A stretch of DNA of 64,000 nucleotides, taken from the sequence record NC_101835.1; one strand, given 5' to 3'. The translations under genes and the position numbers were made by a program. Under the pieces are notes generated by a model. That model was not told the origin of the DNA. It was given only the letters and a program-made list of their open reading frames with translations, and did not search any database. Below, piece by piece: positions 8,991 to 55,819 of this stretch; position 1 is the stretch's first letter; each line of letters opens with the position of its first letter. This DNA comes from a phage.

Positions 8991-9077
8991 TGGTGGGGAG
9001 TGGTGGAGTCGAACCACCCGAGTCGCAATGACAATAGATTTACAGTCTACACCGCTACCTCTACGGGATAACTCCCC
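8991..9077 (-). tRNA. tRNA-Tyr (anticodon GTA), type II
   Basis: 87 nt, acceptor GGGGAGT/ACTCCCC, anticodon loop CTGTAAA, long variable arm, T-arm GTGG-TTCGACT-CCAC, encoded CCA. Confidence 0.75.
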
Positions 9078-9081
9078 AATT

Positions 9082-9156
9082 TGGCACCCCGTACTGGACT
9101 CGAACCAGTGTCAACGGCTTAGAAGGCCGCTGCTTTATCCACTAAGCTAACAGGGC
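9082..9156 (-). tRNA. tRNA-Arg (anticodon TCT)
   Basis: 75 nt, acceptor GCCCTGT/ACGGGGT (two G-U), D-arm GCTT-AGTGGATA-AAGC, anticodon loop CTTCTAA, T-arm ACTGG-TTCGAGT-CCAGT, encoded CCA. Confidence 0.75.
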
Positions 9157-45218: not shown

Positions 45219-45511
45219 AACTTTTTGAGTGGTTTAAAAAGTTTAAATATAAAGCTGTAGCCATCGTGCCGTGGTCCATTCAGTGGGTTGATGAAGGTGG
45301 TCTACCGATACCTGGTGACAAAGATACTGGGTACTGGATTATGATGGAGAACGGGTTTGGAAAGCGAAAGTATACGTGCACAAACTCTACTCGATCTGCA
45401 CTTAATAGAGTGCCTGGTTACAAACTTATGGTTGTGTGGAAAATGTCAGGCGTGCCTCCAGCCAATGCTCAATTTCTTACTGACAATCCGACCACGGTAG
45501 AGGGAGATTGA
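45215..45511 (+). CDS. hypothetical protein (98 aa)
   Basis: Coupled ORF. Confidence 0.35.
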   Translation: MKLFEWFKKFKYKAVAIVPWSIQWVDEGGLPIPGDKDTGYWIMMENGFGKRKYTCTNSTRSALNRVPGYKLMVVWKMSGVPPANAQFLTDNPTTVEGD

Positions 45512-45795
45512 TAATGAAAAAGATTAACAGTAGTGAAGTAGAGTTTAAACTTGTCGGAAAAGGCACTTACTGGGAAGTTCGTCAAAAGGTATATTTGTTC
45601 GGTCTTATTCCCTACTGGTCTAAATTCTACTGGGGAGCTAACGAGTTGGGAAGATACGCCACCAAATCAATGGCACTTATTGGTATAGCAGAGTACATTG
45701 CAGCCCGAGACAGGGTTGGAACCACTTATTACTACACTGCTGACGATATTCGTAACAGTGTTTACGTCCCACAACCACCTGATGGAGACCGTTGA
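45508..45795 (+). CDS. hypothetical protein (95 aa)
   Basis: Coupled ORF. Confidence 0.35.
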   Translation: MIMKKINSSEVEFKLVGKGTYWEVRQKVYLFGLIPYWSKFYWGANELGRYATKSMALIGIAEYIAARDRVGTTYYYTADDIRNSVYVPQPPDGDR

Positions 45796-46019
45796 TGAAA
45801 GTTAAAGTTTTAGATTCAAGCTTCTATATTGGTCAGGAGCCTTTAGTAGGAAAAGTGTTTACTGCTGTCCCTAACGAAGATTACCCTGACCTTTTAAAAA
45901 TAAAAGGAGCAGATCTTATTGCCGCTGGTGCATCTCAAGAATGCTTTGACAGTCAGTGGACCTATAACTTTGCCCTAGGTGAGGATGTAGAGGTAGTGGA
46001 GGACGATCATGAAGGTTAA
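45792..46019 (+). CDS. small acidic protein, paralog family A
   Basis: MKVKVL..., KIKGADLIAAGA, C-terminal VEVVEDD. Confidence 0.4.
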   Translation: MMKVKVLDSSFYIGQEPLVGKVFTAVPNEDYPDLLKIKGADLIAAGASQECFDSQWTYNFALGEDVEVVEDDHEG

Positions 46020-46263
46020 AATTCTTGATTCTAACGTCTACTTGGGACAATCCTTCCTGAATGGAAAGGTCGTTCCTGCGGTATACTTTGAAGGGTTGCC
46101 GTGGGATGATCCTGTGCGGCAACATCACAGTTATGTAGGCCACAACGTGGTGTTTATCTTGGGATCAGACCTGATCACCGCTGGTGCACCTGAATATTAT
46201 TTCGGGGAAGAGTCCTACTATGCCTTTGGGGTAGGGTCAGATGCAGATATTGTAGAGCTGTGA
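46009..46263 (+). CDS. small acidic protein, paralog family A
   Basis: MKVKIL..., ILGSDLITAGA, C-terminal DIVEL. Confidence 0.4.
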   Translation: MKVKILDSNVYLGQSFLNGKVVPAVYFEGLPWDDPVRQHHSYVGHNVVFILGSDLITAGAPEYYFGEESYYAFGVGSDADIVEL

Positions 46264-46275
46264 TGGGTAACCGTT

Positions 46276-46674
46276 GTGAAAAATAAACTGTTTAAAGTTA
46301 CAATGAAAATTCGCGGGGCTTGGAGCGTAAAGCAAGGGCGTATTCCAGAATTTGAGAAAGACTTCTACGTAGTCTCCACCTCGGAGGAGGCTGCATGCTG
46401 GCAGGCTGGCTATGCCTATGCAAGAACCTGGTACGAAGGATACCAGACTGGGGGCTATGACGGAGAAATTATCAGCAAGGGTGTAGAAGAAATTAATGTG
46501 TTGACAAGTGAAAAAGTTTTTGTTATAGTGCATCCAGATTCCAGAGTGAAGCATTACTGGAATGCCAGAACAAAAACTTGGACACCGTTTGCAGATTCTG
46601 CTACGCCACTTTTAAACCAGAAAGCTCTTGACTCTGCCCCAAGTTATGGGGTTGTTGAAGAAAAGCTAAACTGA
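46276..46674 (+). CDS. hypothetical protein, paralog family B
   Basis: Shares HPDSRVKHYWNARTKTWTP-type segment with 48486..48881. Confidence 0.4.
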   Translation: MKNKLFKVTMKIRGAWSVKQGRIPEFEKDFYVVSTSEEAACWQAGYAYARTWYEGYQTGGYDGEIISKGVEEINVLTSEKVFVIVHPDSRVKHYWNARTKTWTPFADSATPLLNQKALDSAPSYGVVEEKLN

Positions 46675-46691
46675 AACAGTGAGGTGTCACC

Positions 46692-46982
46692 ATGATGGAT
46701 TTAATTCTAAATATTGATAACGCAGGAGAGTTTAAAGACGATGGTGTAACAAGCATGGACAAACCCTGCTCTGCTAAGGTTGACTCAAAATGGACCTACA
46801 AGTTTGACGGAGAGATCTTCGCAAATGATGAGAAGGTTGTAGATGCTGCAGCCATTTTAAACGCTCTAGGGTACGACCCTGTGAATTCTTTGATCAAGGA
46901 TCCTGTTGAGTTTGCAGAGTATGTTCGAAAAATGGCAGATCTTGCTGTGGATATTTTAAAAACTATCGACAACAAGCTGTAA
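46692..46982 (+). CDS. hypothetical protein (96 aa)
   Basis: ORF with RBS. Confidence 0.35.
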   Translation: MMDLILNIDNAGEFKDDGVTSMDKPCSAKVDSKWTYKFDGEIFANDEKVVDAAAILNALGYDPVNSLIKDPVEFAEYVRKMADLAVDILKTIDNKL

Positions 46983-47066
46983 AAACTGTTGACACAACGC
47001 TTCAGATTTAGTATCATTGTTTTCAAAGAGAGATAGTTATTCCCTCTTCCTTAAAAGGAACACGTT

Positions 47067-47387
47067 ATGCAAATTGAAATCACTGGCAACAATGTAGAAA
47101 TCACAGAAGGTATGGTATCTTTTATTTCCCGCAAAATGTCCAAGCTGGAGCGTTTACATCCCTCTGTTAACTATGCACGTGTGAGTGTAAAAGTTGAAAA
47201 TGATCACCAGGAAGTTATGGCGTTCATTTTTGACAATTCTGGAAAAGAAGTTATTGCCAAGGCTAAAGGCAGTGATGCTTACGAGGCAACTGACCGTATG
47301 GTAGATGTTGCAGCACGTCAGCTGGCTAAATGCGGTGGAAAGAAAGGTAAGGGGAAAGGCAAAGTAAAGATTGACTTTGGAGAATGA
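47067..47387 (+). CDS. hpf: ribosome hibernation promoting factor / RaiA (YfiA) family homolog
   Basis: Recalled alignment to E. coli HPF: MQIEITGNNVEITEG, KLE, VKVE, ...ARQLAK; C-terminal Lys/Gly-rich tail. Confidence 0.7.
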   Translation: MQIEITGNNVEITEGMVSFISRKMSKLERLHPSVNYARVSVKVENDHQEVMAFIFDNSGKEVIAKAKGSDAYEATDRMVDVAARQLAKCGGKKGKGKGKVKIDFGE

Positions 47388-47396
47388 GGTGCTACA

Positions 47397-47498
47397 ATGG
47401 GTGTGATTAAGAAATTAGTCCCAAATGTAGAGATTGCATGCTTTGAAATTATGTTTGCAATCGCAGTTGTAGTTAATGTGTTAGGTTACGGCTATTAA
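47397..47498 (+). CDS. small hydrophobic peptide (33 aa), tentative
   Basis: GAGGT RBS; hydrophobic; below ORF-track cutoff. Confidence 0.2.
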   Translation: MGVIKKLVPNVEIACFEIMFAIAVVVNVLGYGY

Positions 47499-47524
47499 TA
47501 TCAAATAATTGAGGAGACCTCTAA

Positions 47525-47794
47525 ATGAAAATTAAATTATTCCAAACTGAGCTGGCAGACAAAAATTGTGGACTGGTTGAAGGCATGATTGTTGAAGCAC
47601 AACCAGTGGACTATATGAAGGTGGTTCGTGATGCCCTAGGTGAAGGTTTTGATCTGATGGAGCCAGCTCTGCGAGAAGATGTTATCGAGATGGCTAAAAA
47701 GCACACACCTGAAGGTTTGGTGGTGTTTGTTGCACCGGGTAACGGAGAAGAGTTGATTGTAACTCCTGATGTGTATGAGATTGTAGAGGAATAA
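47525..47794 (+). CDS. small acidic protein, paralog family A
   Basis: MKIKLF..., C-terminal YEIVEE. Confidence 0.4.
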   Translation: MKIKLFQTELADKNCGLVEGMIVEAQPVDYMKVVRDALGEGFDLMEPALREDVIEMAKKHTPEGLVVFVAPGNGEELIVTPDVYEIVEE

Positions 47795-47885
47795 TCCTGC
47801 TTGGATTAGCATACTTCCTCGCTAAGGAAGATTTGTAATTATTTGTGGGAAAGGAGTCCCAATCTCTTACCAGAGGTGATACTAT

Positions 47886-48149
47886 ATGATTGTTTATTTT
47901 AAAACTTCAGGTGGATACCCTGATTCTCAAAGCTTGATCGGAAAAACGTGCACAGCATACTCACCTCTTGATGAGGAGGTAAGCGATATTTTACGAAATA
48001 TGTATCGGATTGACCCCCAAGAAGCCTTTGATCAAAACCTTGTATTTGTCAAGGGCTCAGATATGAAGTCTTTGGGAGCATTCCCTGAAGCAGATGATGA
48101 TGCCGTTTATTCGTTCATGACTCCTTTTGAAGCTATGGTTGTTGGGTGA
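47886..48149 (+). CDS. small acidic protein, paralog family A
   Basis: VFVKGSDMKSLGA, C-terminal acidic. Confidence 0.4.
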   Translation: MIVYFKTSGGYPDSQSLIGKTCTAYSPLDEEVSDILRNMYRIDPQEAFDQNLVFVKGSDMKSLGAFPEADDDAVYSFMTPFEAMVVG

Positions 48150-48153
48150 TAAT

Positions 48154-48486
48154 ATGAAAGTACGCTTTATTGGTGAAACAATTCCTGTGCATCTCCGGTC
48201 GCCTGAGGATTCTGCAGATCTTGCATCTCAAAAGGCGAGAGGTTATGATAAGAAAGTAACCTCAACCGATGTAGTGCTTGAGGCTACTAGTCTACCTGAC
48301 CCTGCTGCATTCTTTAATCATTATGGGTACTATTTCAGCAATCTGATGAATATCGGTGAGCTTGTGTTTATTAGTGGTGGAGAAATTGTTAGCAAGCTTG
48401 GCGGCGATCCGGATATCTTTCATGAAACCTGTCCTTTTGCATTTGTGGTAGGTTCAGATGTGGAAGTTATTGAGGAGGTGCGGTAA
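48154..48486 (+). CDS. small acidic protein, paralog family A; start at internal MKVRF
   Basis: VFISGGEIVSKLG, C-terminal VEVIEEVR. Confidence 0.35.
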   Translation: MKVRFIGETIPVHLRSPEDSADLASQKARGYDKKVTSTDVVLEATSLPDPAAFFNHYGYYFSNLMNIGELVFISGGEIVSKLGGDPDIFHETCPFAFVVGSDVEVIEEVR

Positions 48487-48881
48487 TGGTAAGCCTATAC
48501 CGTGTTGAGTATAGCTCAGATACTGTATACAACGTAAGAAGCAAAGATCGCAGCGACAGAGTGCAAGAAATGTATGTTCTTGCCGACAGTCCGTTATCTG
48601 CAGCGTTCAAGGCAGGGGCTCTTGCATCTCGTTGGAAATTTGAAGGTGGATCTTTCTATGAAGAAACCCTTGAAGATTCTGTTGTTATTTCTTCTGTAGA
48701 GGTTTCAGATGACTACGAAGGGAAAAAGTTCGTAATGCGGCACCCACACAGCAACATTGCGTACTACTGGGATGTTCTGAACAACGAGTGGACCCCAGAT
48801 CTTCAGAAGGCTACTGTGCTAACACCGTTTTTGGCAGATAAGTTCCCACCAGAAGGTAATTTATCCGCACTGTTTCAGTAA
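48486..48881 (+). CDS. hypothetical protein, paralog family B
   Basis: HPHSNIAYYWDVLNNEWTP segment shared with 46276..46674. Confidence 0.4.
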   Translation: MVSLYRVEYSSDTVYNVRSKDRSDRVQEMYVLADSPLSAAFKAGALASRWKFEGGSFYEETLEDSVVISSVEVSDDYEGKKFVMRHPHSNIAYYWDVLNNEWTPDLQKATVLTPFLADKFPPEGNLSALFQ

Positions 48882-48957
48882 TTTTCTTGCACACAGGTGT
48901 TGACAACGCCAACCCTGTGTGAAATAATACCTTCATCTTAATAAGACAGGGGACCGA

Positions 48958-49218
48958 TTGATGAAGATTAAATTGAAAAACCTTGAAACGGCAGAGATTC
49001 AGGACGGTGTTGATTTCCGTTCTAAAGATGGTGACATCTTAGAGGTAAATATTCCAACCTACGAGCTGATTAAAGGTTTTGGCAACGTTCCGGAAGAGGA
49101 TATTACAGAAATTCTTATGATGTTGATTCTTGACGGAACTGTGTTTGTAGGTGAAGGTGAGAACGCTATTGCAATCCCAGGCCATTTTTATGAAGTAGTT
49201 GACGAAGAGGTGCTGTAA
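48958..49218 (+). CDS. small acidic protein, paralog family A
   Basis: MKIKLKNL..., C-terminal YEVVDEEVL. Confidence 0.4.
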   Translation: MMKIKLKNLETAEIQDGVDFRSKDGDILEVNIPTYELIKGFGNVPEEDITEILMMLILDGTVFVGEGENAIAIPGHFYEVVDEEVL

Positions 49219-52877: not shown

Positions 52878-53219
52878 CACACAATTAGCTGCCCGGCTAA
52901 AGTGCTGGAAGCACCTATAACACATCTTTCAACTAAATTTCCTACCACCACAATCACTTACCTCCCACACATGACTGTTTGCTTGTTTAGTGAGCAGTCA
53001 TGCCTTGACATTCTTGCCTATCCTGATAAAATTAAGTTCTTCTCTTTTCTTTTACCGAGTAATTCGGGTTTTCTGTTCTCTTCGGTTTGAAGGGGTATGG
53101 AGATACACCTGAGTGAACAGGGTGAACAACCGAACCTTTGGCTATGGCATTAGCATGGCGAAGCGGACGGGTGACGAAAGAGGGGCCGGAGGACACCAGT
53201 CACTGCCATATGATATATG

Positions 53220-53800
53220 GGTGATAACCTGAAGAGTCTGAATAAGTGTTTAAGTACCAGTCAGAGGAAAAGGTGAATGGTAGCCGAAGGGGGGAGGGGG
53301 GTTTCTTGTATCTTTAATTTGTATATTATGTATACACTTGTAAACCAATCTAATCTGAATCTGTTTACCACACAAAGCGGATAGAGACAAATATTGCCTA
53401 TTAAACTTGAATTATTTATAGAAAATACCACAACACTACTTAAGTCTTTGATTTTACACACAAATCCTGCAGATATTCACCCTCCATATTTAACATACTT
53501 GTAACATATTCCATACTCTACCTGCCCGATCAATTCACCCAACTACATCCCCATATTTTCCCTGTCTGTACTACCCCTGCCCCGCCGGGAGTCCCATCAT
53601 ATCTGGCTTTCCAGCAAATATCACACCCACAAATATCATTGCCTGAAGAGGGTTTCATCCCATAATACCTGCCTTACCTGAAGAGCGCTTCATACACCAC
53701 GTAAATTTTTTAATTGACCTCCCCCTGCCCCGCCGGAGAGGTTGGCTTTTCCCACACAGACCTGAAGAGTCAGCCAGAAATATCTGAATAGGCCCAATTC
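53220..53800. repeat. dispersed direct repeats in non-coding region (CCTGAAGAG x4; CCCTGCCCCGCCGG x2)
   Basis: CCTGAAGAG at ~53226, 53643, 53677, 53761; CCCTGCCCCGCCGG at ~53573 and ~53722. Confidence 0.5.
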
Positions 53801-54339
53801 TACCACGATTTTGACCTGACCTACAGGGAGGCCCGAAGGGTCTAGCTTTCAGCTAGAGTCCTTGCAGGACCTACAGGAGCGCTGCCAGGCGGACGGAATG
53901 GGAATACTTCTCATTCTTATAACAATTCTCAAATATCGAGGCAGTGAGAGAAATTAATAGGCCAGGCCGTTCACACAGTGGCACAACATTTGCAACCTAT
54001 TTTGTGTGGATGAATGAGAATACCTATCATTATGAGAATAGTTATCATTACTGGCAATTTAACATAATACCCATTATGCGCACCACTGGCGATCCATACA
54101 GGGATTGATAACATGAGTTACTGTTTACGCATATAACAATTATATTTATTACTATTTGTGTTGGGTATAGTTAGCAGCCGATAGATTAGATATTGACCTG
54201 CAGACTTCCAACTGTCTAGACGTCTAAACGCCCACACAGCAAGGATTATACATACACAACTGAATGTAAACAGGGCCGCAAAAATGCTACCATACCAGAT
54301 TGTAAATTTTTCATGCAGCACTTGACAAAGAGGAGGAAA

Positions 54340-54760
54340 ACTTGTCTGACATACTGTGACATAATATGACATAATAGTGACACACTGGGCATACTCAACA
54401 CTGGATACAATAACAATTGTTACTATTGCATGCCTCACTGTTCACGCATAGATGATAAGCCATGCCATTCGTTTGCATGACAATAATTAACTTGTTTACA
54501 ATCTTTCACTGGCTATGCCAGGTGACCTTTGGTCACCCCTTCGGGTGTTTCTATGACATAATATAAAAGCAGGGCAACTATTAGAAGATCTATAGTTGCC
54601 TTGCTTGTTATGTCATGATTAACTAAATACAAGGCAACTATGATCTGATTAATAGATTGCAGACAAACTATCACGGGGGTGATGGTTACTGCTTTTATAT
54701 TATGTCGCGACTCCGTCGCGCCATGCCATTCGTTTGCATAGTTGCCTTATTGTTACAGGT
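54340..54760. repeat. iteron/palindrome cluster, candidate replication origin or regulatory hub
   Basis: Tandem TGACATAAT-type 10-bp repeats (~54343-54375) plus inverted copies near 54553 and 54688; 20-bp direct repeat CCATGCCATTCGTTTGCAT at 54462 and 54722; palindrome GGCAACTAT...ATAGTTGCC. Confidence 0.5.
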
Positions 54761-55350
54761 AAAATAATTACATTATTAATTATTTCTTATCTTTCTCTTA
54801 GTCATCTAATGATTCCAGTCAGTATAGTAATGTACAGTAAACATTAGACGACTAAATATTTCTCTGTTTATGATAACTCACCGTGACAATTTCGGACTGT
54901 TTACGAAAAATGTTGACACCTAAGCTGATTTATGTTATGCAGTTTACACGAATAATTATTTTATGCAGGTATTGACTATTCCGTTATTCTGTGGTTGGAA
55001 TAAATACTTTGCAGGCTATAGAATGGCGTGCGTACATGAATTCTGAGATCTGGCGGCTATAGTTATACTCGATTTTTCACGTAGAACACGCTTTTTAGTT
55101 TGTGTAAGTGTATGACTTATAAGAATTTTTACTTGTTGACAAGATATTGAAGATCTGCATCAGGTTAAAATTTGTGCAATAGCTGCATTACGTGCAATTT
55201 TGGAAGGGAAAACGGGTAAAAATAGCCCTGCTACCACACAATGAAAAGTTATGCAATAGTTATTTTACATGTATATTTGTACAGTGTGTGGGGTTGATGG
55301 CTCGTCAATTATTCCACTTGCCAGGTAGGGCCGTTTATGGTAGGAGAAGA

Positions 55351-55380
55351 GCAGACAAAAAGAAAGGGGCCTAAGCCCCT
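55351..55380 (-). terminator. rho-independent terminator for minus-strand block (possibly bidirectional)
   Basis: AGGGGC-ctaa-GCCCCT hairpin; T-run on minus strand after the stop of gene 55400..55819. Confidence 0.5.
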
Positions 55381-55399
55381 TGATAATTCAGTTAAAAAA

Positions 55400-55819
55400 T
55401 TATAATGATTCGTATATTTCAAAAATCCGATTTGCCAGGTCGTTACGGTAGCGGAATTTTTCCTCACGTTTGATCATAAGATCTTTATAGCCGTACTCTT
55501 TAAGCACTTCATTAACTTTATGGCGGCATACTTTCATATTATCCTGCGCGTCACCAATAAATCTGTTGCTATGGTGCATGGCTTTAATTTCTTCTTCCAG
55601 GACCAGGGCAACTATGCGGACCGGATCAAGCTGATAGGCGGTAACATCCATGCGGCATTGTAAACGGCTTTTTACGTCTGCCACCGGATATACTGCAACC
55701 TCTTCCCCGTCAACATTGACAATAATTAGTTTACCATCGATTTCGAATCCTTTCGCCGCCGGACCGTGACAAAAAGCGTTATCAAAGCTATATGCCGGAT
55801 TATTAGATTTAATGTTCAT
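55400..55819 (-). CDS. hypothetical protein (139 aa)
   Basis: AAGAGGTAAA RBS. Confidence 0.45.
   Translation of the reverse strand: MNIKSNNPAYSFDNAFCHGPAAKGFEIDGKLIIVNVDGEEVAVYPVADVKSRLQCRMDVTAYQLDPVRIVALVLEEEIKAMHHSNRFIGDAQDNMKVCRHKVNEVLKEYGYKDLMIKREEKFRYRNDLANRIFEIYESL

Follow-up and report, generated by a model that had tools for sequence, protein, structure and literature searches.

The closest known system to the gene described here is gp139 of the coliphage rV5 (ORF144; ABI79209, YP_002003641), whose RefSeq record describes it as similar to a Klebsiella sigma-54 modulation protein. Mizuno et al. (2019, PMC6375957) catalogued HPF in rV5, FV3, JES-2013, typing phage 14 and FFH2, and used pBAD24 to express the rV5 protein in E. 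coli NM522. By mass spectrometry, its peptides were present in the crude extract, and none were found in the 70S and 100S fractions of sucrose gradients at high salt; the abundance of 100S particles was unaltered by the expression (PMC6375957). As possible reasons the authors gave the wrong growth phase, a genuine loss of binding and salt-induced dissociation. They speculated that viral HPF competes with the host factor and prevents ribosome dimerisation, and suggested that the transfer to the phage was relatively recent (PMC6375957). In 2020 another paper noted hpf, in five rV5-like phages of the gut. Our search of the literature found no functional work on phage HPF after 2019, and nothing relevant in vequintavirus transcriptomics or as mentions of HPF in the Paride and BASEL papers. 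The HPF homologue of rV5-like phages is thus already known; its annotation goes back to the rV5 genome record and its publication to 2019. What is new here is the dN/dS values, the conservation of promoter and gene in a sister lineage, and the replacement of contact positions together with an added basic tail.

The closest cellular relative is the short HPF of E. coli (YhbH; structures 2rql, 4v8h and 6h4n), which is 42–43% identical to the phage protein. Unlike E. coli HPF, the rV5 protein had no visible effect on 100S particles (PMC6375957). E. coli RaiA (YfiA, or protein Y) has the same fold and the same expected site, and both RaiA and the phage protein have a flexible extension past helix α2. 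The RaiA tail is reported to run toward the RMF site (bioRxiv 10.1101/2025.10.07.680626) and to block RMF binding. Other large myoviruses likewise encode PF02482 proteins, as in Cronobacter phage GAP32 (AFC21633) and phrog_8990, but these form a separate family: the protein studied here belongs to phrog_12469 (1e-69) and matches phrog_8990 at 1e-7 only. Mizuno et al. placed the GAP32 HPF elsewhere in their tree (PMC6375957), which implies independent acquisitions.

The HPF-family gene and its product

The DNA analysed here (the window) is a stretch of 64,000 nucleotides from the phage sequence record NC_101835.1. Over the 3 kb around the gene, identity is 99.9% with Escherichia phages SophiaRose, Murica and MaxBurger and 98% with rV5, and the window is therefore identified as an rV5-like Vequintavirus coliphage. 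The gene is an ATG-to-TGA reading frame of 106 codons, the exact coordinates of which were confirmed, and its features are collected in Table 1. Its product is MQIEITGNNVEITEGMVSFISRKMSKLERLHPSVNYARVSVKVENDHQEVMAFIFDNSGKEVIAKAKGSDAYEATDRMVDVAARQLAKCGGKKGKGKGKVKIDFGE. In the record of phage Murica, a ribosome binding site is annotated at the position equivalent to the AAGGA sequence upstream of the start codon.

Table 1 Features of the HPF-family gene and its promoter in the window
Feature	Coordinates	Strand	Remarks
Sigma-70-type promoter, TTGACA, 17 nt spacer, TATCAT	46989..47017	+	Predicted; 11/12 consensus positions
Shine-Dalgarno sequence AAGGA	47055..47059	+	7 nt 5' of ATG; read off the sequence
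CDS, phage HPF-family protein, 106 aa, orthologue of rV5 gp139 / ORF144	47067..47387	+	Including stop codon
HPF core domain, aa 1–89	47067..47333	+	AlphaFold2 pLDDT about 90 or more; best Foldseek match 6h4n_x
Core secondary structure			β1 2–8, α1 14–30, β2 34–43, β3 48–56, β4 61–68, α2 71–93
Asn8-Asn9 (AAC AAT)	47088..47093	+	One-codon length polymorphism, β1-α1 loop
Lys/Gly-rich C-terminal tail, aa 90–106, GGKKGKGKGKVKIDFGE	47334..47384	+	Predicted disordered

By tblastn, the protein has matches in 118 phage records, in every one of them at least 93% identical. The 'ribosome hibernation factor' of phage MaxBurger has exactly the same sequence, and the allele is also found in slur16, V18 and naswa. 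The rV5 orthologue is 97% identical and shares the locus, the promoter and the Lys/Gly tail; relative to it, the window allele has one extra asparagine (GNNVE; 106 versus 105 residues) and three substitutions. The GNNVE form, which is also that of E. coli HPF, is carried by the window and 20 other records; rV5 and most of the genus have GNVE instead, as does the sister lineage described below. In some HPFs, position 8 touches A964 of the 16S rRNA (bioRxiv 10.1101/2025.10.07.680626).

The labels given to the gene across the matching records vary, and include 'sigma 54 modulation factor', 'ribosome hibernation promoting factor' and 'ribosome-associated translation inhibitor RaiA'. We take 'sigma-54 modulation' to be a historical name of the HPF/RaiA family, and a functional reading of the label was rejected on that ground. 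Several public records (OR062528, MT884009, MT884011 and KR698074) contain annotation errors at this gene. In three phages it is mislabelled 'ATP-dependent protease La Type I', and in APECc02 the label 'sigma 54 modulation factor' has been placed on a neighbouring gene, the frameshifted HPF gene itself being called 'hypothetical protein'. It is worth adding that 18 unannotated 'Campylobacter phage' records (within MG065635-MG065684, host C. jejuni) are 96–99.9% identical to rV5-like phages of E. coli across the region considered here; their host label looks doubtful, and is possibly the result of contamination or mislabelling.

The initial annotation had proposed a homologue of HPF/RaiA that aligns with E. 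coli HPF along its length, to be checked by a profile search against the family. That search was run and gives a significant match, with a PF02482 (Ribosomal_S30AE) score of 56.7 bits (E 4.2e-15) where the gathering score is 23.7; the match extends over residues 3–89 of the phage protein and covers positions 1–83 of the 88 in the profile. The NCBIfam model TIGR00741 (HPF/YfiA family) is likewise matched above its cut-off (56.8 bits versus 40.9). The best matches among PDB sequences, using HMMER, are the E. coli HPF chains 2rql, 4v8h and 6h4n (E ~4e-15), with residues 1–90 of the phage protein aligned to residues 1–89 of E. coli HPF at ~42% identity, while RaiA chains reach only E ~0.02. The short strings quoted in the annotation are all present, and the runs common to the two proteins (ITGNNVEITE, KLE, KVE and ARQL-K) go far beyond chance. 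The structure predicted by AlphaFold2 from an alignment of 68 sequences has a mean pLDDT of 84.5. When this model was compared with the PDB using Foldseek, the top 36 matches were all HPF, RaiA or pY chains, the best being HPF in the E. coli 100S ribosome (rmsd 1.1 Å, TM 0.91). The product thus almost certainly belongs to the HPF/RaiA family.

Within the family, the phage protein is nearer to short HPF than to RaiA, and is an equivalog of neither. Its score against the gammaproteobacterial short HPF model (NF007780 / PRK10470) is 65.2 bits, under the cut-off of 125, and against the RaiA model (NF007654 / PRK10324) 22.8 bits, under the cut-off of 158. The name RaiA used in RefSeq is therefore the weaker label, given an identity to E. 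coli RaiA of 24%, a score of only 23 bits and a tail of opposite charge. The C-terminal dimerisation domain of long HPFs is absent: the protein has 106 residues and no second Pfam domain, and its tail is predicted to be disordered.

Genomic context, selection and age

The gene lies within a co-directional run of small ORFs, as the initial annotation had noted. In rV5, the region between coordinates 92269 and 121323 holds 88 ORFs, mainly small (Kropinski et al., 2013). Nine neighbouring small ORFs were searched against Pfam with no matches, and therefore provide no functional context. Upstream of the run are genes for an anaerobic NTP reductase, a PhoH-like protein and a ClpP-like protein. Some of the small ORFs beside the HPF gene are paralogous to one another: those at 45792-46019 and 46009-46263 are 40% identical, with a weaker similarity to this pair at 48127-48486, and those at 46276-46674 and 48486-48881 are 28% identical over 119 residues. 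No Pfam match was obtained for any of these flanking paralogues.

The promoter predicted upstream of the gene is annotated in the rV5 RefSeq record as 'Sigma70-type promoter P144', and would appear to be dedicated to the HPF gene. Its -35 block, ACTGTTGACAC, does not vary among four vequintaviruses, nor does it differ in the sister lineage, the HPF of which is 64% identical. The rV5 genome has 33 consensus sigma-70 promoters, and no evidence of re-programming of the host RNA polymerase has been found (Kropinski et al., 2013). Early expression of the HPF gene is plausible on the basis of this setting. A hairpin considered in the 5'-UTR (47027-47059) was dropped, since its predicted stability (-7 kcal/mol, z = -1.3) is no better than that of shuffled sequences. 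A scan of 45500-49000 against Rfam (E ≤ 1) gave no match, either to the raiA motif or to any other leader RNA.

Purifying selection on the gene is strong within the genus. In pairwise Nei-Gojobori comparisons of four vequintaviruses, dN/dS is 0.02–0.05, from 10–29 synonymous and 2–6 non-synonymous differences. A word-indexed search for homologues returned only five near-identical proteins, and the cellular relatives were reached by an exhaustive HMMER search of 1.8 billion representative proteins. Below an E value of 1e-10 this identified one other cluster, P0004, 64–66% identical to the phage protein; the nearest cellular relatives are short HPFs of enterobacteria, at 42–44% identity. P0004 is encoded on phage-sized contigs of 125–137 kb that are syntenic with the window across the entire small-gene array, with neighbouring proteins 28–88% identical to those of the window. 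These contigs, from the Logan assemblies (L002-L004: ERR6997038_58, ERR4623478_391 and SRR25571739_58736), are vequintavirus-like, and represent a sister lineage with no counterpart among 50,697 phage records. NCBI labels the HPF of this lineage as an Escherichia coli protein. A 33-residue ORF found 3' of the gene in the window (47397-47498) is missing from the sister lineage.

The sister lineage thus keeps the gene, the locus and the -35 block, and cellular relatives are only 42–44% identical, from which we conclude that the gene is old in the phage lineage. The suggestion made in 2019 of a 'relatively recent' transfer therefore does not fit. In a neighbour-joining tree, the phage clade falls on a long branch beside other divergent sequences, a placement that is unreliable, and pairwise identities were used instead. 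The HMMER search also matched a protein of 1160 residues (P0007), in which eight separate stretches resemble residues 36–82 of the phage HPF (E 5e-9); this suggests tandem HPF-like units of β-sheet and helix in an otherwise unrelated large protein.

Elsewhere in the window there are further elements of interest. Six tRNA genes (Met, Thr, Ser, Tyr, Arg) are clustered on the minus strand at 8432-9156. The sixth of the calls, at 8589-8687, is designated 'tRNA-???' by ARAGORN, which gives it an anticodon of four bases (atcc), and scores only 35.5 bits against the Rfam tRNA model; it could be intron-containing, frameshift-suppressor-like or degenerate. Also on the minus strand, 5636-6478 matches the Rfam group I catalytic intron along 843 nt, with 50.3 bits barely exceeding the gathering score of 50. 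The anaerobic NTP reductase of MaxBurger is annotated as a two-piece joined CDS, and is located away from this intron match. Between the end of the small-gene array and the genes on the opposite strand is an ORF-poor region of ~2.5 kb (~52880-55400), which corresponds to the 'non-coding' region 104013-106618 of rV5. Within it, ~54460-54760 is dense in direct and inverted repeats, including a perfect 20-nt direct repeat with copies 261 nt apart and perfect inverted arms of 18 nt. The ORF-poor region might serve as an origin of replication, have a regulatory function or encode a non-coding RNA.

Ribosome-contact positions and the C-terminal tail

The conserved residues through which Gram-negative HPF contacts the ribosome were taken from a 2025 cryo-EM preprint (bioRxiv 10.1101/2025.10.07.680626). 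They comprise K26 and Q29, which contact 16S rRNA positions 1496-1497; T53 and V/H62, which contact m2G966; H55 and E60, which contact the C-terminus of uS9; I40 and E51; and a basic track along α2 formed by K80, R83, K87, K89 and K91. The phage protein keeps K26, R29, E61, I63, R84, K88 and K92, which in E. coli numbering are K26, R/Q29, E60, a residue similar to V/H62, R83, K87 and K91. Three of the five residues of the α2 basic track are therefore retained, and the other two are replaced (V81 for K80 and G90 for K89). Further replacements are M51 for E51, F53 for T53 and S40 for I40. H55 is replaced by F55, with an extra residue, D56, inserted alongside, and R17, which is conserved in the family, is replaced by valine.

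Most of these changes are shared by the sister lineage, which has V17, S51, F55, T81 and S90, and an arginine in place of T53. Such a combination is rare: only two of 141 family members keep no more than one of R17, K81, K90 and E51, and the phage proteins keep none. Taken singly, a replacement can be less unusual, as valine is found at the K80 position in ~12% of family members. As judged from the aligned sequences, the ribosome-contact surface of the phage HPF is remodelled.

The added Lys/Gly-rich tail described in the initial annotation is indeed present. In the window it has the sequence CGGKKGKGKGKVKIDFGE (residues 89–106), in place of the HKDKLKQH of E. coli HPF; of its 18 residues seven are lysine and six glycine, and its net charge is +4. 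AlphaFold2 gives a pLDDT below 50 for residues 92–104. Among 141 relatives there is no other short tail close to it in both length and richness in lysine and glycine, and a screen at 60% K+G is passed by a single tail, of eight residues. The tail of the sister lineage, YSKSKGIDKRTAKWDY, has a net charge of +3 and a sequence unrelated to that of the window, the two having in common their charge and a terminal motif of K-hydrophobic-D-aromatic. Basic tails of unrelated sequence in both lineages are typical of an electrostatic RNA-binding tail. The isoelectric point of the phage protein is 9.0–9.4 across both lineages (9.0 in the window); the values of E. coli HPF and RaiA are 6.5 and 5.95. With its 17–18 residues, the phage tail is found at the position equivalent to that of the RaiA tail; however, the two are not homologous, and that of RaiA is on balance acidic (net -4).

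One-base indels in a purine-rich repeat shorten the tail, giving proteins of 99 residues in Murica and 101 residues in APECc02, and the APECc02 variant is also seen independently in a Logan assembly (P0003). The distal part of the tail is therefore not indispensable.

Possible roles during infection

The best explanation of these observations, and in our view the probable one, is that the phage HPF parks and protects vacant host ribosomes, using a modified and salt-sensitive mode of binding. Transcription of the gene would start at its own sigma-70-type promoter and rely on the host RNA polymerase in unmodified form, the gene being one of many small accessory genes, presumably early, that form a large array in this virulent rV5-like phage. 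We infer that the protein would occupy the tRNA/mRNA channel of the decoding centre, between the head and body of vacant host 30S or 70S particles, which would be held inactive yet intact as host mRNA vanishes, or in a slow-growing or stressed host, to the benefit of the phage. The disordered Lys-rich tail would exit from helix α2 where that of RaiA does, adding a non-specific electrostatic grip on the 16S rRNA, and may reach toward RMF or the anti-Shine-Dalgarno site. Given this RaiA-like exit, and the blocking of RMF reported for the RaiA tail, 70S monomers rather than 100S dimers would be expected, so that the outcome would be to favour parked and protected monomers. Binding that relies on fewer specific contacts and more on electrostatic contacts from the tail would be salt-sensitive, and this would reconcile ribosome binding with the negative result obtained at high salt (PMC6375957). 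In favour of parking and protection are the identity to HPF, the fold, the contacts that are kept, the low dN/dS, the synteny and the retained -35 block in the sister lineage and the basic tails of both lineages; against it count the negative experiment on rV5, the replaced contacts and the scores below the equivalog cut-offs. The initial annotation had suggested that the gene may control host ribosome activity during infection; the kind of ribosome-association experiment it called for is the one performed on the 97%-identical rV5 protein, with the negative outcome given above (PMC6375957).

That the protein is still a ribosome binder is rather likely, a judgement that applies jointly to parking or protection and to a second possible role, as a competitor of hibernation. 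In the latter, weak and reversible occupancy of the HPF/RaiA site, with the tail blocking RMF, would prevent 100S formation and dormancy and leave ribosomes free for phage mRNAs, a hypothesis offered by Mizuno et al. (PMC6375957). The phage tail emerges at the same place as the RMF-blocking tail of RaiA, the smaller number of specific contacts would suit weak and reversible binding, and some defence systems have been reported to raise RMF in infection. However, 100S particles were not visibly affected when the rV5 protein was expressed, in cells that were not in a 100S-rich state (PMC6375957), and a frameshift shortens the distal tail in at least two isolates. We consider competition unlikely, and of the two ribosome-binding roles, parking or protection is somewhat more likely. 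It is doubtful that the HPF scaffold has been kept while the canonical ribosomal site is no longer bound, the target being some other RNA or protein. The absence of the rV5 protein from purified ribosomes (PMC6375957) would fit such repurposing, as would the failure to reach either equivalog cut-off and the remodelled surface charge. In both phage lineages five published contact positions and R17 have been lost, at a dN/dS so low that a function is being selected. Yet the central contacts of α2 (R83, K87 and K91) are kept together with K26, the change at K80 is found in other family members, high-salt washing is a sufficient explanation of the negative result, and neighbours without recognisable domains suggest no alternative partner.

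The least probable reading by far is that of a recently captured host gene carried as an inert passenger, with no role for the phage. It would agree with the recent transfer suggested by Mizuno et al. (PMC6375957) and with the lack of a known phenotype, but the nearest cellular HPFs are only 42–44% identical, the gene is present in all 118 matching vequintavirus records and, at the same locus, in the diverged sister lineage, and selection and synteny together effectively exclude it. More broadly, there is some chance, though not a large one, that the phage HPF is a remodelled and selected variant, with either a new form of ribosome engagement or a non-ribosomal target, that counters translation-directed host responses; for example, weak and tail-anchored occupancy could block RMF or host-imposed dormancy, or could shield the decoding centre from defence nucleases. 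A loss or change of function is conceivable.

A ribosome-silencing factor is a counter-intuitive gene to find in a virulent phage. Vequintaviruses are common candidates for phage therapy. Useful new pointers are that purifying selection is strong and that the contact surface is altered, with a basic tail added. Whether the protein parks, protects or frees host ribosomes bears on the way in which large lytic phages manage translation in slow-growing E. coli of the gut.
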